This document shows, piece by piece, positions 1 to 45,157 of a DNA stretch of 64,000 nt; the stretch's first letter is position 1; every line of letters starts with the position of its first letter. The DNA lies in the NCBI GenBank assembly GCA_050250855.1, contig JBFWNW010000001.1, positions 256,001 through 320,000 on the forward strand, given 5' to 3'. The position numbers and the translations under genes were made by a program. The notes under the pieces were generated by a model. The model saw only the letters and a program-made list of their open reading frames with translations, searched no databases and had not been told where the DNA came from. The stretch is from Candidatus Babeliales bacterium. GTDB taxonomy: Bacteria; Babelota; Babeliae; Babelales; JACPOV01.

Positions 1-591
1 ATGCATGGTTGCTATAATTTAAAACAAGCAATTGATGAAACACGCGGCCTCATTTTAGCACACAATAAAAAGCCGATTGAAGCAATGTTTGATTGTTGTT
101 GTGGTGATGTAATTCCAGCAAAATTGAGTGGCGTGAATTTTAAAAAAGCTCCTTACTTGGCGCGCCGCTATCCGTGTAATTTTTGCAAGCCGTGTAAAAT
201 TTATGCATGGCGCTTAGAATATTCCGTAAAAGAGTTTCTTGATATTTTGCATCAAGCAGGGTACCCCATCAAAACTATTCTTGATATTGCGGTAGTAAAA
301 AAAGATTCTGCAGGTGCAGCAAAAGAGATTTTAATACGGGGGAATAATGCCGTGATAACCTTTACCGGCAAGCAGTTTTATTCTTTGCTTACTAAAATAA
401 AAAGTTACTGTTATACCATAGAAAAAAAAGATGATACGATTATTTTTGATGGCAAGGGCTATGGTCACCACCTTGGCATTTGCCAGTGGGGTGCACGACG
501 CATGATTGATGAAGGGTGGACCTATGCTTCGATTTTACATTTTTATTATCCGGGCAGTATGTTAATGGAATTAAAAAATACGGTGAGTTGA
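1..591 (+). CDS. SpoIID/LytB-domain protein (C-terminal part, probably truncated by window start)
   Basis: C-terminal motif GKGYGHHLGICQWGA..M...G....ILHFYYPG typical of the SpoIID/LytB family. Confidence 0.8.
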   Translation: MHGCYNLKQAIDETRGLILAHNKKPIEAMFDCCCGDVIPAKLSGVNFKKAPYLARRYPCNFCKPCKIYAWRLEYSVKEFLDILHQAGYPIKTILDIAVVKKDSAGAAKEILIRGNNAVITFTGKQFYSLLTKIKSYCYTIEKKDDTIIFDGKGYGHHLGICQWGARRMIDEGWTYASILHFYYPGSMLMELKNTVS

Positions 592-595
592 AGAG

Positions 596-718
596 TGGTT
601 CGAGACGTTTTTCTACGAAAAACCCTCACCACGAACGGATTTAAAAAATAATTATAGTATTTTAAAACTTACAAAATTAATCTCCCGTTCGTGGTGAGGA
701 ACGAAGTGTCTCGAACCA
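596..718. repeat. REP-like palindromic pair (family R), copy 1
   Basis: TGGTTCGAGAC..CTCACCACGAACGG (596-638) faces its inverse CCGTTCGTGGTGAG..GTCTCGAACCA (685-718); related copies near 27.5k, 49.9k, 52.4k and 63.9k. Confidence 0.8.
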
Positions 719-747
719 TAACGGGATTTTTAGTAAAAGGGTTTGGT

Positions 748-1206
748 ATGCCAAATTATAAAGGTCATCTTGTTGGTGGGGCTGCTGCTTTTGGCATAGT
801 TCTTTATTGCATAAAAAGCAAAAATCCAACTATTATTACTGCGCTTGAATGGTTGTGCTGTGCATTATTGGGCGCCTTGTTTCCTGATATTGATACAAAA
901 AGCAAGGGACAAAAAATTTTTTACCGAATGGTATTTTTTTCTGTTGTTGTTTTGCTTATACAAATGCGGATACGAGCAGTAGCATTTGTTAGTTTATTAG
1001 CACTTTCACCATTACTCATTCGTCACCGTGGCATTACGCATTCATTATGGTTTATTGTGTTTTTATGCAGTTCTGCATTGGTCTATGCACATATATTTGC
1101 ACCAGCATACGCGCAGCTTGTTTTTTTTGATGCGTTGTTTTTTTGTGCAGGGGCAATTTCTCATTTGTGGTTGGATCTGGGTTTACGGAGAATGTTGCGT
1201 ATTTAA
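748..1206 (+). CDS. Membrane-bound metal-dependent hydrolase (YdjM-like)
   Basis: MPNYKGH, LFPDID, HRGITHS and SHLWLD motifs; start moved to ATG 748 because the 691 extension lies in the REP. Confidence 0.8.
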   Translation: MPNYKGHLVGGAAAFGIVLYCIKSKNPTIITALEWLCCALLGALFPDIDTKSKGQKIFYRMVFFSVVVLLIQMRIRAVAFVSLLALSPLLIRHRGITHSLWFIVFLCSSALVYAHIFAPAYAQLVFFDALFFCAGAISHLWLDLGLRRMLRI

Positions 1207-1853
1207 TGAAATGGAAAAGCTGGTGTTCCCACTGTTACAAGAACAAGAAATGTTACAAAGAAACAAGCTATACAACAAATCACACAAGGTGTAACTATTA
1301 CGCAGTTACAACAGTAGGTCATCTTATGCAGTTTTTCATTATCTTTGGGTATTTGAGTTGCACAGTATAGAGCAAGCTCATTTATTTTGGTTTTAGGGAC
1401 AACAATATTTTGCTTTTCAAGATCATTCTTTATTTTTTCTGAGAAAAAGGTTGTGTCATTGCCAGCAGAGTAAGAGCTATGGAATAGTTTTCTAGGAGAA
1501 AAGATTATTTTTGATGCTAGATTGTGTTGTTTTTTTAAAAACTCTAAACATTCTTTCTGACGTTCTTCATTTTTAGTATATATTTTCCAAGCATTATCTT
1601 TTGTTAAAGGCATTTCCAATTTAATTAATTTTTTACAATCTTTATTAAGTTTTGTATCAAAACTTGTTTTATCAAACTGGGTAAAGTTTTTGGCAATATA
1701 TTGTGCCGTTAACTTTTTTAATGAGGTGACAGTTTTTTGTTGTTTCATTGGGATAACAATTTCATCATTGTCTTGTGGCAACAGATTATACTTATGTTCC
1801 ATTGCATACGAGAGTGTGCTTAGTGTGAGTAGTAAAATTATGTAATTTTTCAT
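1203..1853 (-). CDS. Secreted paralog P1 (signal peptide + ME, BC-box-like, Cys-rich C-terminal TM)
   Basis: MKNYIILLLTLSTLSYA-ME; TSLKKLTAQYI; shared RQKECLEF motif. Confidence 0.85.
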   Translation of the reverse strand: MKNYIILLLTLSTLSYAMEHKYNLLPQDNDEIVIPMKQQKTVTSLKKLTAQYIAKNFTQFDKTSFDTKLNKDCKKLIKLEMPLTKDNAWKIYTKNEERQKECLEFLKKQHNLASKIIFSPRKLFHSSYSAGNDTTFFSEKIKNDLEKQNIVVPKTKINELALYCATQIPKDNEKLHKMTYCCNCVIVTPCVICCIACFFVTFLVLVTVGTPAFPFH

Positions 1854-1883
1854 GATTAATCTTTTTTGTTATGTTTTTATCTG

Positions 1884-1921
1884 TGGTTAGATTTTGGTTT
1901 GCAAGAATGTTACGGATTTAA
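1884..1921 (+). repeat. Copy of hydrolase 3' tail (1-nt deletion, Leu>Phe)
   Basis: TGG TTA GAT TTT GGT TTG CA- AGA ATG TTA CGG ATT TAA versus the coding tail at 1168-1206. Confidence 0.9.
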
Positions 1922-1922
1922 C

Positions 1923-2561
1923 TTACTGATCAGATGATCCATTTATAATAATATATATGAGAGCAATTAACCCTGAAAGGACAAAGCAAGAGCATGTGGC
2001 CATGGTTCTTTTTTCAAAACACCAACGAATTTTTTTCATCTGTTCATGGGTGAGTTCTTTATTGCACTTTTCTAAACAATAAGAAGTAATTTGTTGTTGT
2101 TGCTCGGGCGTTAATTGAGAGAAATTGTTTAGGCTTTTTTGAAAAAAATTTTTCCAATTTATAAGTGTTGTTTTTTCCTTTATATCATCCATGTCGCTTT
2201 TTATTAGACCAAGCTGGCTGGTATCAGGTCGATTAAGCTGATAAAAAAAATCAAGGCATTCTTGTTCTCGTTTTGGATGTTTAGTATACATTGCAATTGC
2301 ATTATCATTGGTCAATGGCAGTTCCAATTCAACTAATTCTTTACAGTCTTCATTAAGTTTTGTATCAAAACTTGTTTTGTCAAACTGGGTAAAGTTTTTA
2401 GCAATGTATTGTGCCGTTAGCTTTTTTAATGAGGTGACAGCTTTTTGTTGTTTCATTGGTAGAGCAATTTCATCATTATGCTGTAGCAAGAGTTGATACT
2501 CTGGTTCCATTGCATACGAGAGTGTGTTTAGTGTGACCAGTAAAATTATGTACTTTTTCAT
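1923..2561 (-). CDS. Secreted paralog P2
   Basis: N-terminus nearly identical to P1 up to LPLT; divergent C-terminus with TM. Confidence 0.85.
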   Translation of the reverse strand: MKKYIILLVTLNTLSYAMEPEYQLLLQHNDEIALPMKQQKAVTSLKKLTAQYIAKNFTQFDKTSFDTKLNEDCKELVELELPLTNDNAIAMYTKHPKREQECLDFFYQLNRPDTSQLGLIKSDMDDIKEKTTLINWKNFFQKSLNNFSQLTPEQQQQITSYCLEKCNKELTHEQMKKIRWCFEKRTMATCSCFVLSGLIALIYIIINGSSDQ

Positions 2562-2581
2562 GATTAATCTTTTTTTATCCT

Positions 2582-2620
2582 TGGTTAGATCTTGGTTTGC
2601 GGAGAATGCTACGGATTTAA
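2582..2620 (+). repeat. Copy of hydrolase 3' tail (encodes identical WLDLGLRRMLRI*)
   Basis: TGG TTA GAT CTT GGT TTG CGG AGA ATG CTA CGG ATT TAA; 6 nt differences, all synonymous. Confidence 0.92.
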
Positions 2621-3276
2621 TGAAAGAGAGACACAGCTGCGAAAACTGAAGAAAGAAAGCAGAATGCTGTCGGTACGGCGCAAAGTATTTGGCACCATCC
2701 GGCTCTATTCATAGTTATCATAACGGGATTATTTTTTTTAGCAGGAACAGGATACACAGCGCCCTGAAAGCCGTTTAAATTTTCTTTATGTGCTTTTTTG
2801 GCATCCCGCTGAAGTTTTTCTGCGCATTTATTTATAATTCGTTGTCTTAAATGTGAAGCCACTAGGATATTTTTTTCTTGCAGATGTTGATCTATTTGTT
2901 TGAGAAAATACTCCTTGTTGTATTTTTTCTTATAAGACTTATCTATGAATTCGTTCTGAACAGACCATGCGTGAAACGAAATTTGATTTACAGGTTTAAA
3001 TTCATACTGTGTTACCAAAAATTGTTCACACTCTTGTTCTCGTTTTTCATATTCAGTAAATATTTTCCATACATTGTCAGGATTTAATGGTAGTTCTCGT
3101 TCAATAAGATCTATACAATCTTGCGGGATGGTATCTGGTTTGATTTGTGCTTCGAATTGTTTGTAATTTTGTGTAACAGAGAGAACAGCAAGAGTTTTTA
3201 GTGAAGGAAATTCATTAGGTTCCATTGCATATGAAACGGTGCTTAGCGTGACCAGTAAAATTATATATTTTTTCAT
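2617..3276 (-). CDS. Secreted paralog P3
   Basis: SYA-MEPNEFPSLKTLAVLSV...IPQDCIDLI...REQECEQF; C-terminal TM. Confidence 0.85.
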   Translation of the reverse strand: MKKYIILLVTLSTVSYAMEPNEFPSLKTLAVLSVTQNYKQFEAQIKPDTIPQDCIDLIERELPLNPDNVWKIFTEYEKREQECEQFLVTQYEFKPVNQISFHAWSVQNEFIDKSYKKKYNKEYFLKQIDQHLQEKNILVASHLRQRIINKCAEKLQRDAKKAHKENLNGFQGAVYPVPAKKNNPVMITMNRAGWCQILCAVPTAFCFLSSVFAAVSLFH

Positions 3277-3287
3277 GGTAGCCTTTG

Positions 3288-3326
3288 TGGTTAGATCTGG
3301 GTTTACGAAGAATGTTGCGGATTTAA
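3288..3326 (+). repeat. Copy of hydrolase 3' tail (encodes identical WLDLGLRRMLRI*)
   Basis: TGG TTA GAT CTG GGT TTA CGA AGA ATG TTG CGG ATT TAA; 3 nt differences, all synonymous. Confidence 0.92.
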
Positions 3327-3330
3327 GTAT

Positions 3331-3885
3331 CTAGTTTAAAGATAAAGCTATTACCATACCAAAATATAAAAATGGAAATCCCATACCGCATATTATCAAA
3401 GCAATGTTTCCACAAAAGTCTGATGCTTCATTAAGGTTCCATTGTAGTTCTTTATGGCATTGGTGTGCTATAGTAATAAGCTTTGTTTTATCATGTATAA
3501 TTGTATGCTTTTTAGCATCATTTTCTATTTTATTGTAAAAATAGTTTTCATTATATTCATTTAAATATTTTCTTTGTTCTTTTTGAGTTAAAGAAGGAAC
3601 TTTATCGCTACAATATGCATTGACCAAAAATTGCTCACACTCTTGTTCTCGTTTTTTATATTCAGTAAATATTTTCCATACATTGTCAGGATTCAATGGT
3701 AGTTCTCGTTCAATAAGATCTATACAATCTTGCGGAATAATATCTGGTTTGATTTGTGTTTCGAATTGTTTGTAATTTCGTGCAACAGTCAGAACAGCAA
3801 GAGTTTTTAATGAAGGAAATTCATTAGATTCCATTGCATATGAAACGGTGCTTAGTGTGAGCAATAAAAATATGTATATTTTCAT
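3331..3885 (-). CDS. Secreted paralog P4
   Basis: First ~88 aa nearly identical to P3, then an unrelated C-terminus with TM. Confidence 0.85.
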   Translation of the reverse strand: MKIYIFLLLTLSTVSYAMESNEFPSLKTLAVLTVARNYKQFETQIKPDIIPQDCIDLIERELPLNPDNVWKIFTEYKKREQECEQFLVNAYCSDKVPSLTQKEQRKYLNEYNENYFYNKIENDAKKHTIIHDKTKLITIAHQCHKELQWNLNEASDFCGNIALIICGMGFPFLYFGMVIALSLN

Positions 3886-3893
3886 GTTGATTT

Positions 3894-4427
3894 TTATAAT
3901 TCACTAATAGTATAAATAATATATCCCATGAATACGCATGTCAGTAAGCAGTAAAAATTACCGATATATTGATAGCAAGATATTTTTCTTTTTCTTGATT
4001 CATCATGGAATGTTCTTTCTACAAGTTCAGGAATTGCTATGCTTATTTCATCAGGTTCTAGTTGTTGGTTTTGTAATGTAGTATAAAAAAATTCTCGAAT
4101 ATGTTTTTCTTGCTCCTGAGAGCTAGTATATATAAAATTGTCTTTAAAATAAATGGGTGGAGAATTATGTTGATAAAAGAATTCTAAACATTCTTGTTCT
4201 CTGTCTTGATTATGCTTAAAGATGTTTAAAACATTATCGTCTGTTAATGGTTTTTCCCATGCAATTGCTTTTTTGCATTCTCGGGGTAGTGTTGCGGTAT
4301 TATTAATTTTTTCTTCAAAGTTTTTATAATTTTTTCCAATATATTGACTAGTTAATTTTTTTAAAGAAGGTATTTCCATGCTAAGCGTTATGGTGTTTAC
4401 CAGAAAAAAAATAAATTTTTTTTTCAA
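3894..4427 (-). CDS. Secreted paralog P5 (most divergent)
   Basis: ITLS-MEIPSLKKLTSQYI...LPRECKKAI...REQECLEFF; TTG start at 4427 follows a GGAGAGG SD. Confidence 0.8.
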   Translation of the reverse strand: MKKKFIFFLVNTITLSMEIPSLKKLTSQYIGKNYKNFEEKINNTATLPRECKKAIAWEKPLTDDNVLNIFKHNQDREQECLEFFYQHNSPPIYFKDNFIYTSSQEQEKHIREFFYTTLQNQQLEPDEISIAIPELVERTFHDESRKRKISCYQYIGNFYCLLTCVFMGYIIYTISEL

Positions 4428-4544
4428 TTGTACCCTCTCCAAAACAAGTTTACTAGTATAGGCTTTTTTTTAATATCACCTATTCATAGTTTATTTTGCA
4501 AGATTTCTTGCTAGTTTTTTCTAGCAAGATAGGCTTTAATACAA

Positions 4545-4600
4545 AAAAAATAACAAAGCTCGCAATAATGCAAACGTTACTGCGAGCTTTGTTATTTTTT
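4545..4600. terminator. Long hairpin, likely intrinsic terminator
   Basis: AAAAAATAACAAAGCTCGCA..TGCGAGCTTTGTTATTTTTT downstream of the 4624 gene. Confidence 0.65.
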
Positions 4601-4623
4601 ATTCTGATTCAGTTTTAAGAATT

Positions 4624-5037
4624 TTAGTAATCGCAGCAATTATCTTTGTATCTCTCATATTGACCAATAATATCCTTATTTAAGAATATAGTACTTATGC
4701 CACCAGCAGTTAATGCTAAACCAATAGTCGCCATTGCAGAGCCACCTATTCTTGCCGCAACAGATTTGAGCTCCGAAAATATTTTAGAGCATAAACCTTG
4801 GTCTAAGATTTCTTTCTCTGGATGAGCTTGAAGTGTTTGTTCTACACCTTTTTTGACTAATAATAGGCCAATGACAGAAAGGCCTATGCCAAAAGCGTTT
4901 AAGGCTTTTACTCTCGTGTCATTACTGCTAGGGGTATAATACCATTGATCGAATTTTTGATACACATTAGAGCAATTTAGCTGAAAGACTTGAGAGCTTG
5001 TTATGAGCAAAAAAAGTAGAAGAGACTTTAAATTCAT
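4624..5037 (-). CDS. Hypothetical membrane protein (signal peptide + two hydrophobic segments)
   Basis: ORF with hydrophobic N-terminus; start moved to MNLKSLL. Confidence 0.65.
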   Translation of the reverse strand: MNLKSLLLFLLITSSQVFQLNCSNVYQKFDQWYYTPSSNDTRVKALNAFGIGLSVIGLLLVKKGVEQTLQAHPEKEILDQGLCSKIFSELKSVAARIGGSAMATIGLALTAGGISTIFLNKDIIGQYERYKDNCCDY

Positions 5038-5244
5038 AAGATTTACCTTATTTTGTAGAGTGAAATAATGCATAAATAATACGGTTTTTGTGACTTTTAG
5101 TCAAGTTCAAACAATGCTCATTAGACTAACTCTTGTTTTTTTTGTATCAGTGAGATACACCAAGTATAGAAATACAGTTTATGGAGCCGGGTGAGGATGT
5201 CAGTAAAAAATTGTAAGCAGGTAAGAGCTACCCTCTCCCGTTTT

Positions 5245-6627
5245 TTAATTCTTAAAATAAAGTAGAGCTGTGCTTACCAAGACGCCAGGAATAAGAGGAA
5301 TTAGTGGTGTGCCCAATAAAGGCCATAAAGCAGAAACGGTAGCGCCGGCAATTAAAGCAGTAAGTGCGGTAGAGCTTTTTATAGATTTTCCATAAAGTGC
5401 TGCAACAACAACGGGACTGAATGATGCCCCTAATCCTGACCATGCATAGGTGACAAGACCCATGACGGTTGCGCTATTGCGGTAGCCAATCGCATAACCA
5501 AAGAGGGCAACCAAAATAATGCTGCAGCGTGAAACCCAGATTAGTTCTTTATCATGCGCTTTGTGCGTAATGATTTTTTTATAAAAATCTTCAGTGATAG
5601 AATTTGCAGCAACCAGAATCTGCGTATCAATTGTTGACATCGTAGCAGCAAGAATTGCGCATAAAATAATGCCACCAAAAAATGGATTAAAAAGCATTTT
5701 AACCAGCTGTACAAATACCATTTCACTTCTAGCCAAATGAGGCGTAAGGCCCATGCCAACAAGTCCTACGGCAACAGCACTGAGTAATGAAATTACAAGC
5801 CACGTCATACCCAGATATTTTGCTCGTTTTGTATGTTCAGGATTATCAATGCCCATATAGTTAACCACTACATGCGGCATCCCCAAATAACCAACACCCC
5901 AGACAATACCATTAAGCATTTCTATCAATGTTGTAATATTACCAGAGGGAATTAATGATAATGAAATATTATTGTGCGCTGCATAGGATATAATTGGCTG
6001 TAAGCTTCCTAAAGTATATAAACTGATAATTGGTACTATAGCAATCATGGCAAGCAAAAACATTCCTTGAAAAAAATGATTCCATACAAGGGCAATAAAG
6101 CCACCGCATAAAATATAAAGAAGTGATGCACCAAGGCCAATAACCATGCCGGTGTGATAATTAATACCAAAGACCGCTTCAAATACGCGGCCCATGCCTG
6201 TTAATCCTGCGCCAATATAAAAACTAAAAAAGAACATAAGAATAATACTAGAAGCAATCCCTAGATAGCCTTTTTTGTCGTTGAAGCGTTTTTCTAAGAA
6301 AGATGAAAGGGTAACCGTTTGATACTGCTCGGTGGCAACACGTAATTTTTGTGCAATAAAATGCCAGCTTAAAAACATACCGCCAACAAGACCTATGGCA
6401 ATCCAAGCACCTTCTAGTCCTTGCGTATAGATTGTTGCCGGAAATGCCATAAAAAGCCATGCGCTCATATCACTTGCATGCGCAGCTATAGCAGTAACCC
6501 AATAGTTAACGCCACGGTTGCCCAGCATAAATTCTGAGGAAGTTTTTGTTTTAAGGTAGCTAACAATACCTATCAAAAAAAGAATGCCAAAATATAGTAA
6601 AAATGCGACCAAAAGTGCTATATTCAT
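5245..6627 (-). CDS. putP: Sodium/proline symporter (SSS family)
   Basis: ASDMSAWLFMAFP, GYLGMPHVV, AILAATMSTIDTQ and YAWSGLGASFSP motifs. Confidence 0.88.
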   Translation of the reverse strand: MNIALLVAFLLYFGILFLIGIVSYLKTKTSSEFMLGNRGVNYWVTAIAAHASDMSAWLFMAFPATIYTQGLEGAWIAIGLVGGMFLSWHFIAQKLRVATEQYQTVTLSSFLEKRFNDKKGYLGIASSIILMFFFSFYIGAGLTGMGRVFEAVFGINYHTGMVIGLGASLLYILCGGFIALVWNHFFQGMFLLAMIAIVPIISLYTLGSLQPIISYAAHNNISLSLIPSGNITTLIEMLNGIVWGVGYLGMPHVVVNYMGIDNPEHTKRAKYLGMTWLVISLLSAVAVGLVGMGLTPHLARSEMVFVQLVKMLFNPFFGGIILCAILAATMSTIDTQILVAANSITEDFYKKIITHKAHDKELIWVSRCSIILVALFGYAIGYRNSATVMGLVTYAWSGLGASFSPVVVAALYGKSIKSSTALTALIAGATVSALWPLLGTPLIPLIPGVLVSTALLYFKN

Positions 6628-6828
6628 TATGGTTCCTAAAATAATTAATAGTTTTATATAAGGTTAGAATACCTGAATTTTGTAAAAAAGGGAAAATCTA
6701 CCTTTTTTTTTACCTGAAATCTATGATTAGGTCTTATTTTTAAGCATTTTTCTTTATTTTTAGAGCTTGTTTTTGTTATACTGAAAATAAACAGGTTACC
6801 GTAGTTAAAAAAGAGATAAAAAAGGAGT

Positions 6829-7617
6829 ATGAAAATGAATACTAAAAAGTTGTTAATCTTAGCACTATTGCTTATTTCTGGTGCAGCAATCCGCGCTGGT
6901 ATAGAGCTTGAAACGCAATTGCCAGAAGAAATTAAGAACAAATTAGTGCAATTGCAGAGTCAATTAAAAAATCAGGCAATTTTAAAAACTAAAACTAAAG
7001 GTGGTTCTAAATATCCTGTGTTGCTTGATAAAAATAATCTTCGCCTTGGTTTGCAGTTTATAACAAAAGAAAATCTTGAAAATTTGACACCAAAACAGAT
7101 TGGTCATTTAAAAGATGCGGTGAAAAATATTTATGATAAAGGATTGCAGCAACCAGTAAATATTAATTTAACAAATGCTCAGTTTAAATTAGTTCCTTTT
7201 GCCGAAGGTACTTTTAATGGCTGGCGTTTATTACTTGAACTTGATGCAGAACAGCAATCCCAAGCATTTAATGATTTTCAGAAAATCTTATATGATGAAT
7301 TAGCACAAAAGAACATTCAAGTTGATACTGGTGCATCATTATTTATAACGCTTGGGTTTACTCGCTTCGAGCAGGTTAAGAATGCTATTAAAGATTTTAA
7401 ATTACAAGCTACTGTACAGCCATTTGCACTTGGTTCTTTGATTTTGACAACGGTTAATTTAGATGTAAAGCCGACAACAATACGTATTGAACGAAAACCT
7501 ATCGAGGAATTTGGCAAGAATGTATATGTGCCTGCACCTGGTGATACTCAATTTGGTAAAAAAGGCCGTACCGGTAAAACAGGTAGATTGGGTAGAAGAG
7601 GCCAGCACAAGTTATAA
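6829..7617 (+). CDS. Secreted 2H-phosphoesterase-like protein lacking both catalytic His
   Basis: Aligns by eye to the adjacent ThpR (NLRLGLQFI vs RLHITLQFI; LFITLG vs PHLTIG); signal peptide; basic tail. Confidence 0.6.
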   Translation: MKMNTKKLLILALLLISGAAIRAGIELETQLPEEIKNKLVQLQSQLKNQAILKTKTKGGSKYPVLLDKNNLRLGLQFITKENLENLTPKQIGHLKDAVKNIYDKGLQQPVNINLTNAQFKLVPFAEGTFNGWRLLLELDAEQQSQAFNDFQKILYDELAQKNIQVDTGASLFITLGFTRFEQVKNAIKDFKLQATVQPFALGSLILTTVNLDVKPTTIRIERKPIEEFGKNVYVPAPGDTQFGKKGRTGKTGRLGRRGQHKL

Positions 7618-7628
7618 TCTAAAGAGAT

Positions 7629-8180
7629 ATGGCAAATACGTATGTAGCATTTATGCTTCCTGATGATCTGCAAGAACAGATTGTTGCAGTGCAAGATGAA
7701 CTTAATGCACGGTTGAAGCAGCAGGGGTTGCCACTTCTTAAAAAACGATTGCCCGAGCGCTTGCATATAACGTTGCAATTTATAAGAAAAAATGATGTTT
7801 CTCAGGAAGAGATTGCAAAAATTGTTCGTGCATTACAAGCCATTGCACATGAATTTAAATCTATTGAGCTTGCACAGAATCTTGCGCAAGCTCAGTTTGC
7901 TTTCTGGGGACCGGTTGTCGTATTGGTATTAAAACCACATGAAGAGTTAACTGCTTTAGTTGCAGCAGTAAGAAAAGCATTTGATAATGCTGGCATTGAA
8001 TATGATAAAAAATTTCCTGACTATATTCCACATCTGACGATTGGTTCTTTAGATGAAGCATCACGCAATTTTTTACAGCAGCAAAAAATACAAGTTCCAG
8101 AGATTAAAACGTACAAAGCGGATGCACTTGTTTTACGTTCAGCAGGAGCAAATGCAGCCCATATTTTTCTTAAGAGATAG
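7629..8180 (+). CDS. thpR: RNA 2',3'-cyclic phosphodiesterase (2H family)
   Basis: Two HxT motifs: HITL and HLTI. Confidence 0.82.
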   Translation: MANTYVAFMLPDDLQEQIVAVQDELNARLKQQGLPLLKKRLPERLHITLQFIRKNDVSQEEIAKIVRALQAIAHEFKSIELAQNLAQAQFAFWGPVVVLVLKPHEELTALVAAVRKAFDNAGIEYDKKFPDYIPHLTIGSLDEASRNFLQQQKIQVPEIKTYKADALVLRSAGANAAHIFLKR

Positions 8181-31104: not shown

Positions 31105-33699
31105 TTAATTATCTATAAAAGCTTTTAATGCTTGCCCTGTTAAAGAATCTTTATTGTGGGCAATTTCTTGTGGCGTGCCGCTTGCAACAATGGTACCGCC
31201 AGCACTTCCGCCGCCCGGGCCAAAATCGATAATAGTATCGGCATTCATTATAGCATCTATATTATGTTCAATTACCACCACCGTATTTCCTTGAGCTACC
31301 AATTTTTTTAGAATAGTAAGTAATTTTTCTACTTCCTGAGGATGCAGGCCTGTTGTTGGTTCATCAAGCAAGTAAAGGGTATTTCCCGTTTCAGCTTTGG
31401 CTAATTCAGCCGCTAGCTTAATGCGTTGTGCTTCGCCGCCCGATAAGGTTGACGTAGATTGCCCTAAGGTAAGATACTCTAAACCTACTTGCTTCATTAC
31501 CTCTAAAAGGGCGAAAATCTTTTTTTCATGTTTAAATACCGCAAGGGCATCGCTTACTGCCATAGCTAAAACGTTTGCAATAGAATAGCCCTTGAATTGT
31601 ATTGCTAATATATCTTCATTAAATCGCGTACCGTTGCATACGGGGCATTCTTTTTGGATGTCGGGCATAAAGGTCATATCAACTTCCACGACGCCAGCGC
31701 CATTACAATTTTGGCAACGTTGATCGGAACTATTGAAAGAAAATTTTTCTGCACCAAAGCCACGATTTTTTGCTTCTGGCAAAGCGGCAAATAAATCTCT
31801 TATATGATCAAAGAGTTTTGTATACGTTGCTACGTTGGAGCGGGTTGATTTTGTACTACCTATGGCGCTTTGATCAACGGTAATTATACGATTACAATAA
31901 TCTAACCCTTCAAGCGAAGTATGTTTTCCTGGTATTTCGCGCGCATTATTAAAATGTTTTCGTGCAGCTTTGTCTACAATATCAAATAAGAAGGTTGATT
32001 TTCCTGAACCAGATACGCCGGTCATAACTACAAACTGTTTTAATGGAATGCTCACGTCGATATTTTTTAAATTATGTTCGCGTGCACCACGTACGGTTAA
32101 AGTTTCTTTTTTGCGTGGAGCATTGTTGAGCGGTAGTGTCGGCTTTTTAGCCAAATAACTGCCTGTTATGGAGTTGGCGCATGCCATAAGATCTGCAGGC
32201 GTTCCTGAAGCAATAATTTTTCCTCCCTTGCTGCCACCTTCTGGGCCGATATCTATGATGTAATCAGTATTTCTAATTACCTCTACATCATGTTCAATAA
32301 CTAAAACGGTGTTGCCTGCTTGTTGGATTTTCCTTATTGTTTTTAATAGTTTTTCTGTATCGTGAGGATGCAGCCCTGTTGTTGGTTCATCAAGAACGTA
32401 TAAAACGCCGCTTAGGCCGCTGCCAAGTAAGCTGGCTAATCGCAATCTTTGTGCTTCTCCTGCTGATAATGAAGGAACGGTTCGGTCTAAGGTTACATAA
32501 TGGAGGCCAACTTCTATTAAATTTGATGTTCGCTCTTTTAAGGCGCCTGAAACGGCAGTAAGTATAGAAGCATCTTCTTCTGGGATTATGGTATCTAAAT
32601 CATGCAGCCATTGAAGGAATTCATGTAAACTCAAACTAACCACATCATTTATCGTTTTTCCGCTTACCGTTGCATTTCTGCCAAGCGGTGCTAAGCCGGT
32701 TGCATTACAGGCCGTGCATGGTTCATGAAGAATATATTTTTTGATATCCTGTGAAACTTTCAATGGATTTTTTTGGTAAAGCGCTAATAAGGGAGGAATA
32801 ATACCTTCAAAGTTTCCTTCACTCACTTTTTTAGGTGGTTTGATAGTTTTATATTCTTTAAGAAAATCTGGATGGGTAATACCGTAGAGTAAAAAATCTT
32901 TTTGTTTTTGCGTATAATTTTTTAGTGGTAGGTTGGCATCAAAATAAAAATTATAATGCTTGCTTGCTGCCAATATGGTGTTTTGGTAATGGTGTGCAAG
33001 CGGTTTATCCCATAAATCTACGCCGCCATGCATGATGCTTTTTTCTTCATTAAGCAAACGAGTAAGATCAACCGTGATGTTTTCACCAACTCCTTTACAT
33101 GGAGTACATGCGCCAGTTGTAGTGTTAGAAGAAAAGTGGGCCATGGTTAGTTTTTCTAGTTGCTGCTTGCAATGCGGGCAATTAAAATAACTTTTTTTTC
33201 GTTTTTTCAAAGATGAACCGTTTTTCTCTTCTATCTCAATGGTTGTCAGTGCGCCTTTATCTTGCAAAGGTTGTTTGACGTTTTTAGCACATCCTGTGCA
33301 CGGTTGCTGGCCAAGAGCCGCAAACATATTTCTTAAAATAGTTAAGATGCCTGTTTTGGTACCAACCGTAGAACGAGGATTAAAATCTGCCACGCGCTGC
33401 GAAACACCAATTGAAGGAGATAGTCCTGTAATGCTTTGTACGTTTGCTTTTTCTATATGATCGGTAGTCATGCCCATAGATTCCAAATATTGCCGTATGC
33501 ATTCTTTTTGCAAAATGTCGGTAGCAATAGATGATTTACCGGAACCAGAAGGGCCTGTTAAAGCAACAAGTTTTCCTTTAGGAATTTCAAAACAAATATT
33601 TTTTAAATTATGTTCCTGTGCACCATGTACAATAATTTTATTAGGGTCATGCGTAATTGGTAAGCCGCATTGTAAGGGGCATAGAGATTTTTTTAGCAT
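31105..33699 (-). CDS. uvrA: UvrA-family ABC ATPase (short class II/DrrC-like paralog)
   Basis: GAQEHNLKNI, two Walker A motifs, LSAGEAQR/LSGGEAQR, DEPTTGLH, Zn-finger CxxC pairs; 864 aa. Confidence 0.85.
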   Translation of the reverse strand: MLKKSLCPLQCGLPITHDPNKIIVHGAQEHNLKNICFEIPKGKLVALTGPSGSGKSSIATDILQKECIRQYLESMGMTTDHIEKANVQSITGLSPSIGVSQRVADFNPRSTVGTKTGILTILRNMFAALGQQPCTGCAKNVKQPLQDKGALTTIEIEEKNGSSLKKRKKSYFNCPHCKQQLEKLTMAHFSSNTTTGACTPCKGVGENITVDLTRLLNEEKSIMHGGVDLWDKPLAHHYQNTILAASKHYNFYFDANLPLKNYTQKQKDFLLYGITHPDFLKEYKTIKPPKKVSEGNFEGIIPPLLALYQKNPLKVSQDIKKYILHEPCTACNATGLAPLGRNATVSGKTINDVVSLSLHEFLQWLHDLDTIIPEEDASILTAVSGALKERTSNLIEVGLHYVTLDRTVPSLSAGEAQRLRLASLLGSGLSGVLYVLDEPTTGLHPHDTEKLLKTIRKIQQAGNTVLVIEHDVEVIRNTDYIIDIGPEGGSKGGKIIASGTPADLMACANSITGSYLAKKPTLPLNNAPRKKETLTVRGAREHNLKNIDVSIPLKQFVVMTGVSGSGKSTFLFDIVDKAARKHFNNAREIPGKHTSLEGLDYCNRIITVDQSAIGSTKSTRSNVATYTKLFDHIRDLFAALPEAKNRGFGAEKFSFNSSDQRCQNCNGAGVVEVDMTFMPDIQKECPVCNGTRFNEDILAIQFKGYSIANVLAMAVSDALAVFKHEKKIFALLEVMKQVGLEYLTLGQSTSTLSGGEAQRIKLAAELAKAETGNTLYLLDEPTTGLHPQEVEKLLTILKKLVAQGNTVVVIEHNIDAIMNADTIIDFGPGGGSAGGTIVASGTPQEIAHNKDSLTGQALKAFIDN

Positions 33700-44281: not shown

Positions 44282-45157
44282 ATGAAAAAATTCCAATCTG
44301 CAATTTTACTATTCTCTTTACTGTGTAGTGGTTTACCATCAGGTTTGCAGGCACAAGAACAAGACAAAAAGGCTACTGCTATTTGTTTTGATTTTGATGA
44401 CGTGCTAACGCAAAGAGAATCACGCATGCAGGATTTTTTGTATATTATTGCCTCAGCATGTTTTTCTAATCCTCTTGGCTGTTTCTATACGCTTTTTGAT
44501 ATGAATAAGATTAGAAAGCAAGGTGAACAGTATGCAAAGAAAGAGGCAGCGAGTACTCATTCTACCGTTGATGCTATGCTTTCCTATCTTAAGGAGCATA
44601 ACTATGGGGATTTCTTTGCTTATCGCGATAGCATTATTGACTCAGCAATTGAGCCACAACCAATTCCTGGCATGATTCAGCTGGTACAAAAATTCAAAAG
44701 CGAAGGTTATACCGTACTCGGCGTTACCAATCAAACATATGAAGAAAGCAAAATTTATCGCACAAAACTAAAAAATCAAGGTATAGATTTGACGAGTCTC
44801 TTTGATGCTATTGTTACTACGTATGCACCAAACTACCCGCAAGCAGCATCTGATACTATGCAGCGTATGGAAGCTAATGTATACATGACAAATCCTGGTG
44901 TTAGAAAGCCAGCAGCGAGTTATTATCAGGTGGTAAAAGATATCAGCAAACCACTTGGTGTGAATCGTTGGTATTTTATTGATGATCAAAAAGTGAATGT
45001 TGAAGGTGCAAACCAAGCAGGCATGATCGGTATTCATTTTGCCTTACCAAAAGATAAAAAGGGTAATCAAAAGAAAGCACGTAATGCCACCAAAGAAGAG
45101 TTGCGCGCAACGGTGTATAAAACGTATGATGCTTTGGTAGAATGCGGCGCTGTATAA
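44282..45157 (+). CDS. HAD-family hydrolase with signal peptide
   Basis: FDFDDVL, TN, KP, FIDD..NVEGA..GM. Confidence 0.8.
   Translation: MKKFQSAILLFSLLCSGLPSGLQAQEQDKKATAICFDFDDVLTQRESRMQDFLYIIASACFSNPLGCFYTLFDMNKIRKQGEQYAKKEAASTHSTVDAMLSYLKEHNYGDFFAYRDSIIDSAIEPQPIPGMIQLVQKFKSEGYTVLGVTNQTYEESKIYRTKLKNQGIDLTSLFDAIVTTYAPNYPQAASDTMQRMEANVYMTNPGVRKPAASYYQVVKDISKPLGVNRWYFIDDQKVNVEGANQAGMIGIHFALPKDKKGNQKKARNATKEELRATVYKTYDALVECGAV

Follow-up and report, generated by a model that had tools for sequence, protein, structure and literature searches.

Integrons and clusters of attC sites lacking integron integrases (CALINs) hold tandem one-gene units, and integrative elements that enter at coding 3' ends bring a copy that restores the end of their target gene. 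Here we describe a locus in a 64,000-nucleotide stretch of a protist-parasite-type bacterial genome, from a Candidatus Babeliales bacterium (the window; contig JBFWNW010000001.1, positions 256,001 to 320,000), where the last 13 codons of the housekeeping gene ydjM recur downstream beside antisense paralogous genes (P1 to P5), and which is, in our judgement, probably a displacement array that works without a recombinase and has the 3' end of a housekeeping gene as its anchor, with donor DNA coming from related strains or species. The part of Jackson et al. (2009, PMC2935791) that treats rhs C-terminal displacement describes incoming homologous ends, with intervening genes, that push the old ends downstream; the route proposed there is homologous recombination with circles, with no known integrase. 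For Vibrio cholerae type VI secretion system (T6SS) modules, the corresponding sections of Kirchberger et al. (2017, PMC5361080) report an upstream homologous anchor and an illegitimate joint, followed by ordinary homologous recombination, and mention a likeness to integrons together with no evidence for an integrase. In the Staphylococcus aureus lpl genes, host-interaction paralogs are shuffled by crossovers in conserved boxes, according to the portion of Tsuru and Kobayashi (2008, PMC2568036) devoted to them. In Streptococcus pneumoniae transformation, donor pairing by a long flank and an ectopic repeat gives a duplication; the passages of Johnston et al. (2013, PMC3784515) on this point concern repeats that are incomplete insertion sequence copies and duplications of ~100-900 kb.

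The genome of the window (G000; 1,218,285 bases, 95% complete) was compared with a second species of the same genus (G001). The coding end of ydjM is named t0 and its displaced copies t1 to t3; in G001 the coding end is c0 and the displaced copies are c1 and c2. The features, in window coordinates, are:

748 to 1206, plus strand: ydjM, the host gene, 152 aa, with ATG at 748 in a frame open from GTG 691; PF04307 at E 1.1e-16
1168 to 1206, plus strand: t0, the coding tail, WLDLGLRRMLRI and stop; the likeness to t3 begins at 1164
1884 to 1921, plus strand: t1, displaced, decayed by a 1-nt deletion and a Leu>Phe change; type A junction on its left
2582 to 2620, plus strand: t2, displaced and intact, with 6 differences from t0, all synonymous; type A junction
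3288 to 3326, plus strand: t3, displaced and intact, with 3 differences from t0, all synonymous; type B junction, as in c2 of G001
1203 to 1853, minus strand: P1, 216 aa, signal-peptide-like start and C-terminal hydrophobic helix; its stop overlaps t0; G001 orthologue 67% at the amino acid level
1923 to 2561, minus strand: P2, 212 aa, N-half common with P1, C-half unrelated (16% at the amino acid level)
2617 to 3276, minus strand: P3, 219 aa; its stop overlaps t2; G001 orthologue 73% at the amino acid level
3331 to 3885, minus strand: P4, 184 aa, N-half common with P3, C-half unrelated (26% at the amino acid level)
3894 to 4427, minus strand: P5, the most divergent paralog, with a TTG start at 4427 behind GGAGAGGG and a frame open from 4442
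1537 to 1836, no strand assigned: homology box, P1 N-half, 83% identical to 2245-2544 (P2)
3014 to 3277, no strand assigned: homology box, P3 N-half, 93% identical to 3623-3886 (P4)

A repeat scan reproduced the three downstream copies of the ydjM tail that the first-pass annotation had listed, with periods of 716, 698 and 706 bp, and a scan of both strands of G000 gave no further copy, the next ungapped match having 13/39 mismatches. Codon comparison likewise agreed with it that t2 and t3, both of which translate to WLDLGLRRMLRI and stop, differ from the coding copy at synonymous positions only, and that decay within the window is limited to the copy at 1884; the 5 nucleotide differences between t2 and t3 are also all synonymous. 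P1 and P3 do end in FH and a stop that is the reverse complement of the TTA at the tail end. The name 'hydrolase' given to the host gene was a label only, for the profile identifies a YdjM inner-membrane protein (PF04307); the gene was matched in 59 of the 60 relatives searched. The five antisense paralogs occupy the tail-bearing interval and have no members elsewhere in G000. That each is flanked by tails holds for P1 to P3, on both sides, but P4 has a tail on its left only and P5 has none, there being no tail in the P4/P5 gap. Contigs of the sequencing runs X1 and X2, the former possibly the source sample, match the tail region without differences, and a single X1 contig covers 608-3078. Between a spoIID-like gene and ydjM lies a hairpin repeat (window 596-720, arms 624-638 and 685-699), at which read depth peaks; a related hairpin repeat has the same position in G001.

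As in rhs, an intact gene is followed by dissociated 3'-end copies with intervening genes (three copies in G000, two in G001). In the rhs loci treated in that part of PMC2935791, the displaced tip is the variable payload and the core fragments vary in length and are nearly identical, whereas here what is displaced is an invariant 13-codon housekeeping end, constant in length and 8-23% divergent, and an entire antisense gene forms the payload; variable toxin tips with immunity genes on an Rhs or CdiA core are not what is found, the host being YdjM and the tips invariant. In the T6SS modules, as those sections present them, the old effector is replaced and orphan immunity genes stay, whereas here the old cargo is intact and the end of the anchor gene is doubled. 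The evolutionary unit straddles gene borders, as it does in the portion of PMC2568036 on lpl; the lpl box described there lies inside each paralog, whereas the second box here comes from the neighbour's coding end, under protein-level selection. Unlike integrons, CALINs and integrative elements, the locus shows no IntI or island integrase and no attC hairpin, and its cargo genes are paralogs; the target end is restored and the old end displaced downstream, as in an integrative element, but no integrase lies in or beside the element. The array thus works like the rhs, T6SS and lpl systems and is a member of none, its anchor being an invariant housekeeping end and its payload an antisense gene. 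Our search of the open-access literature turned up no published account of displacement arrays whose anchor is the end of a housekeeping gene.

The strongest peculiarity of the tails lies in how they vary. A random substitution in t0 would be synonymous 23-32% of the time. Some of the differences from t0 may be silent changes in t0 itself, which makes the non-coding copies the proper set for a test; the five of them show 9 synonymous substitutions, 1 non-synonymous substitution and 2 indels (parsimony count on the codon table), the 9/10 corresponding to a binomial P of 1.4e-5 to 2.5e-4. Between t2 and t3 the count is 5/5 (P 0.0006-0.003) and between c1 and c2 7/7; the comparison with t0 alone is weaker (6/6 synonymous, P 0.003-0.013). 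As a control we used 112 other distinct ydjM loci, each with at least 1.5 kb downstream. A tail copy is present at 8 of them and at 0/112 in the reverse-strand control; six of these copies, pooled after leaving out L057 and the exact copy in L137, carry 25 synonymous and 50 non-synonymous differences, a share that differs from that of the array tails with a Fisher P of 0.0009. Several control copies sit between convergent paralogs and look like plain duplications that decayed. Because these decayed copies in other lineages lack such a bias, the bias in the array is real and unusual, and the tails have mostly spent their history as translated ydjM ends. The earlier suspicion that neutral decay fails to explain the tails is therefore upheld by random substitution and control loci alike, and the idea that they were recently functional gene ends by the silent-only differences and by the tails of G001.

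Among the individual loci, decayed copies of the ydjM end were seen in L074, L080, L119, L131 and L189, mostly between convergent exported-type paralogs and in Babeliales-type lineages. In L134, an independent lineage, ~120-1430 nt behind ydjM, a 409-aa same-strand cargo stands between ydjM and an 81-nt displaced end that has 4 synonymous and 2 non-synonymous differences.

The gene order in G001 is ydjM, an AAA_14/DUF4143 ATPase gene, c1, the P1 orthologue, c2, the P3 orthologue, an unrelated 612-aa gene and the same symporter. Its ydjM ends in HLWLDLGFKKMFRI and stop (GFKKMFRI), whereas c2 encodes WLDLGLRRMLRI and stop, the peptide of the window, and c1 does likewise save for one inserted base. 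Both c1 and c2 are 12 nt and 4 residues away from c0, so that the displaced tails of G001 are not copies of its present ydjM. The WLDLGLRRMLRI tail next to P1 is coding in G000 and displaced in G001, that is, the same end is attached in one species and dissociated in the other. The array comprises 4 tails and 5 P genes in G000 and 3 tails, the ATPase and 2 P genes in G001. This comparison with a related genome thus gave the outcome that the first-pass annotation had anticipated: the array is not identical in the two species, its cassettes vary in number and content, and tail variants of one genome match the ydjM end of another, the displaced tails of G001 encoding the ydjM peptide of the window.

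The G001 ATPase was considered as independent cargo at the same boundary and set aside: the left flank of c1 resembles a P-gene 5' untranslated region (UTR; 12/15 nt shared with the flank of t1), so this insertion is not independent proof of a fixed crossover. Upstream of the ATPase gene there is a twice-repeated imperfect palindrome (L031:4396-4515). Within 261 genomes of the order, strong matches to the P family came only from G000 and G001, with four weak ones (E 7e-8 to 3e-4). No more strains with the array were recovered from metagenome contigs, searched with a P profile and a ydjM profile, or from viral contigs, and protein collections added no further one, yielding two distant P relatives (P0006 and P0007) without genomic context. 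Run X4, from another study, held two near-identical 151-nt pieces, both in P2 and at depth 2, which is too thin to use.

Exchange between the species can also be read from silent divergence, calculated at four-fold sites for the 583 of 655 reciprocal best hits with at least 30 such sites, using 1.20 of the ~1.3 Mb of G001. The median over these 583 orthologues is 0.605; P1 (12/49, 0.24) and P3 (17/60, 0.28) rank third and fifth lowest, and seven neighbouring genes together show 315/511. Because the values of P1 and P3 are far below the core median, this block was exchanged after the core genomes split, and its crossing between species is supported. Recombination within the tails is suggested by a four-gamete test, in which 9/15 informative site pairs of the six tails are incompatible with one tree. 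Moreover, c1 is 2 nt from t2 and 6 nt from t0, its positional counterpart, and the junctions left of the tails are of type A for t1, t2 and c1 and of type B for t3 and c2, P1 having a type A junction in G000 and a type B junction in G001. The proposal that cassettes enter or leave by recombination in the tail is therefore retained in part: mosaic tails and variable content agree with it, but a tail is not strictly tied to its own gene, as c1 illustrates. Low silent divergence from G001 (0.13-0.33) was also noted at G000:C3:148703-153153, at C3:135981-136853 and at window 31105-33699, an 862-aa UvrA-like gene; these genes are likely to be more cross-species transfers.

The genome scan for other duplicated 3' ends that the first-pass annotation had suggested produced the following cases in G000 and G001. 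Their gene names were read from sequence, tgt being confirmed for relatives by PF01702:

G000:C4:79926-81056 and ~700 nt downstream, also L225, minus strand: tgt end of 44 nt, stranded beyond a cargo of 157 aa and of exported type
G000:C4:43290-43336 and 44421-44467, L230: end of a comEC-like gene, a 47-nt exact copy around a 322-aa convergent cargo
G000:C2:103425-103536 and 106913-107025: end of a HAD-type gene, 114 nt, an 89% copy, flanking two near-identical 478-aa repeat-protein genes
L261:9189-9752 (G001), minus strand: end of a grpE-like gene, a 52-nt exact copy around a 184-aa ankyrin-like cargo
G000:C4:35834-37050: gnd end copy, running 40 nt past the stop

The tgt site is empty in G001, and in G000 the reading frame of the following convergent gene has come to run across the stranded copy; the site of the comEC-like gene is likewise filled in G000 and empty in G001. 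The gnd end copy is the first element of a small array of exported-type paralogs on the same strand, and the starts of these paralogs overlap the tail. Tail copies occur for 5/580 and 2/539 conserved genes, compared with 0/580 and 0/539 for mid-gene copies and 1/580 and 2/545 for head copies. No common boundary motif was seen among the stranded tails of 44, 47, 52, 81 and 114 nt. Since the lengths differ and no common motif was seen, we favour general recombination filtered by host-gene survival over one enzyme acting at one site.

The search for a dedicated enzyme gave little. The statement that no recombinase is visible in the window agrees with the lack of any recombinase Pfam match among the 11 proteins of window 1-8177. 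No integron integrase was found in G000, and its two PF00589 genes, outside the window, are best matched by XerD and XerC and score 137 and 132 bits for TIGR02249, whose cut-off is 265 bits. Serine recombinases or resolvases (PF00239) and IS110 (PF02371) were not found in G000, these being the transposase-type families searched. Of the attC motifs, which we take to be RYYYAAC and GTTRRRY, the second is present in 6/6 tails and 1619 times genome-wide, and the first within 160 nt of 0/6 tails in either orientation; a long hairpin was found in 0/5 tails folded. No dif-like XerC/XerD site lies at the unit borders, and the single match in the genome to what we presume to be the dif pattern, at C1:465918 outside the window, has no likeness to the tail by eye. 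The integron-like framing of the first-pass annotation is therefore given up: no IntI, attC, serine recombinase or IS110 recombinase was found in a genome that is 95% complete. The genes comEC, dprA and recA are present in G000.

That this is a displacement array with cross-species exchange is well supported. The route, with any competence and circles, we infer as follows. The first junction between a P 5' UTR and a tail would have arisen by duplication or homology-facilitated insertion, with a left break ~40 nt before the ydjM stop; since the tail contains the stop of the convergent P gene, an insertion at this point leaves both genes intact only when the tail is doubled. L137, in which 417 nt spanning the border between ydjM and its convergent neighbour are duplicated exactly, shows a type of event able to make such a junction. 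From that point the tails, 39-43 nt long, would serve together with the conserved N-halves of the P genes as internal homology boxes. Donor DNA, probably taken up via ComEC, DprA and RecA, would pair at two places, one within the body of ydjM and the other at a tail or an N-half; a linear fragment and a circle closed tail to tail that re-enters at t0 would give the same product. The resident coding tail and its gene would be pushed downstream, receiving the junction of the donor, and deletion would return a silent tail to coding. Displacement with the donor's junction would explain the single boundary, the silent-only differences and the mosaic tails without an integrase. The idea of homology-facilitated illegitimate recombination draws in part on the T6SS sections of PMC5361080.

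Several observations weigh against this explanation. The array is known from two genomes only, no second strain having been found, and no tail-to-tail joint was seen in the contigs of 4/4 runs, although contigs drop rare variants; one X1 contig runs through three tails unbroken. There is no gradient of polarity or age, the decayed tail being the proximal one, and all five displaced copies begin within ~5 nt of one place, as a site-specific enzyme would give. A length of 39-43 nt at 8-23% divergence would make a poor RecA substrate, the presence of competence genes is no proof of competence, incompatible sites can also come from recurrent silent-site mutation, and the L137 duplication may be an assembly artefact. 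Elsewhere in the genomes 3/7 tail matches fit poorly on inspection: the gnd copy runs 40 nt past the stop, a GNAT copy ends 31 nt before the stop and one is a short A-rich match.

A static array made by plain tandem duplication, in which the P genes stay put and silent tails are sometimes overwritten by imported ydjM alleles through ectopic conversion, would account for tails that are mosaic and decoupled from their own P genes, and it has a precedent in the plain duplications with a break in the ydjM end at 8/112 loci of other lineages, several between convergent paralogs. To the left of each of the five displaced tails the sequence resembles a P-gene 5' UTR, so the boundary that they share may go back to just one or two old junctions. 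However, the two species do not have the same array content, the P1/P3 block has itself moved, the P1 orthologues have junctions of different types (A here, B in G001), and to convert 39 nt alone, with flanks that are not homologous, two crossovers must fall within a very small anchor; we consider this account unlikely. We give next to no credence to its simpler form, duplication followed by neutral decay or by conversion from the genome's own ydjM. G000 does carry many tandem paralog arrays, t1 and c1 have decayed and the copies of other lineages decay neutrally, but the purely synonymous differences of t2-t3 (5/5) and c1-c2 (7/7) speak against it, and tails in G001 that are 12 nt and 4 residues off their own ydjM largely refute it.

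An integron-like site-specific system, in which a recombinase (XerCD or one acting in trans) cuts at the tail start and moves circles of tail plus gene, would fit the common left boundary, the GTTRRRY in each tail and the regular 700-nt units. It is very unlikely given tyrosine recombinases that are only XerD- and XerC-like and far below the integrase cut-off, the missing RYYYAAC partner and paired hairpin, a GTTRRRY motif that is common throughout the genome, a dif-like site located elsewhere, and other stranded tails of differing lengths without a shared motif. Alternatively, the displaced tails might be kept for a function of their own: they might act as a promoter on the minus strand, form an RNA structure or be translated into a short peptide. 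Their distance upstream of the P start codons is 11-30 nt, their terminal TTA is the stop of P1 and P3, and an in-frame TTG stands ahead of t3 and c2. No sigma-70-like site, terminator or Rfam match was found on any tail, however, none of the 6/6 tails has a stable fold (z -1.1 to +2.3), and in-frame stops occur a few codons upstream of t2, t3 and c2; the variation follows the codon table, including first-position Leu changes, unlike a DNA-level constraint. We consider such a function highly improbable, and the promoter or RNA role by which the first-pass annotation would have explained the tails as plain duplicates finds no backing in these searches.

Setting these alternatives beside the displacement array, we return to its cargo. 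Each of P1 to P5 has a signal-peptide-like start, and P1 to P4 have a strongly hydrophobic stretch near the C-terminus; the starts are the ground on which the P genes may be called effector-like. No Pfam family matched them above E 0.017, P1 had no match among Protein Data Bank (PDB) sequences, and its predicted model (pLDDT 66.7, pTM 0.47) had no Foldseek match at E 0.001, with a best Z of 6.3 in a wide search. After the signal peptide there is a motif (P1 residues 44-80 and counterparts in the paralogs) that is BC-box-like by what we take to be the consensus; the SOCS/BC-box profile PF07525 gave a sub-threshold E of 0.24 in 1/10 P members, and PRAME and ZSWIM4 clusters are among the nearest predicted structures, at TM 0.52-0.57, below the bar of the tool. 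G001 has a distant P-family member at another locus (L047:1354-1941), a variable cluster that follows gnd and in which no tail copy was detected. Upstream of P5 a strong bidirectional terminator-like hairpin with 24-nt arms occupies window 4545-4600.

Displacement at this locus has probably produced a reshuffled set of proteins that are exported and anchored in the membrane, vary in their C-halves and would face the protist host. There is also a slim chance of a dedicated Babeliales cassette system for host-facing genes, with a recombinase or with XerCD plus an accessory factor and a fixed crossover in the last codons of a core gene; in that case translation of the host gene would proof-read the recombination site, and each cassette would be licensed through the coding position. 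Our case adds a two-species comparison and a genome-wide control. The signature, a short gene-end copy beside cargo that differs at silent sites only, can be searched for with little effort and gives dates for exchanges between species. On the reading that we favour, intracellular bacteria with small genomes, in which XerCD-like genes are the only integrases found, still have a means of gaining and exchanging host-facing genes: incoming DNA lands on the conserved end of a core gene next door, and the stranded ends record where the alleles came from.

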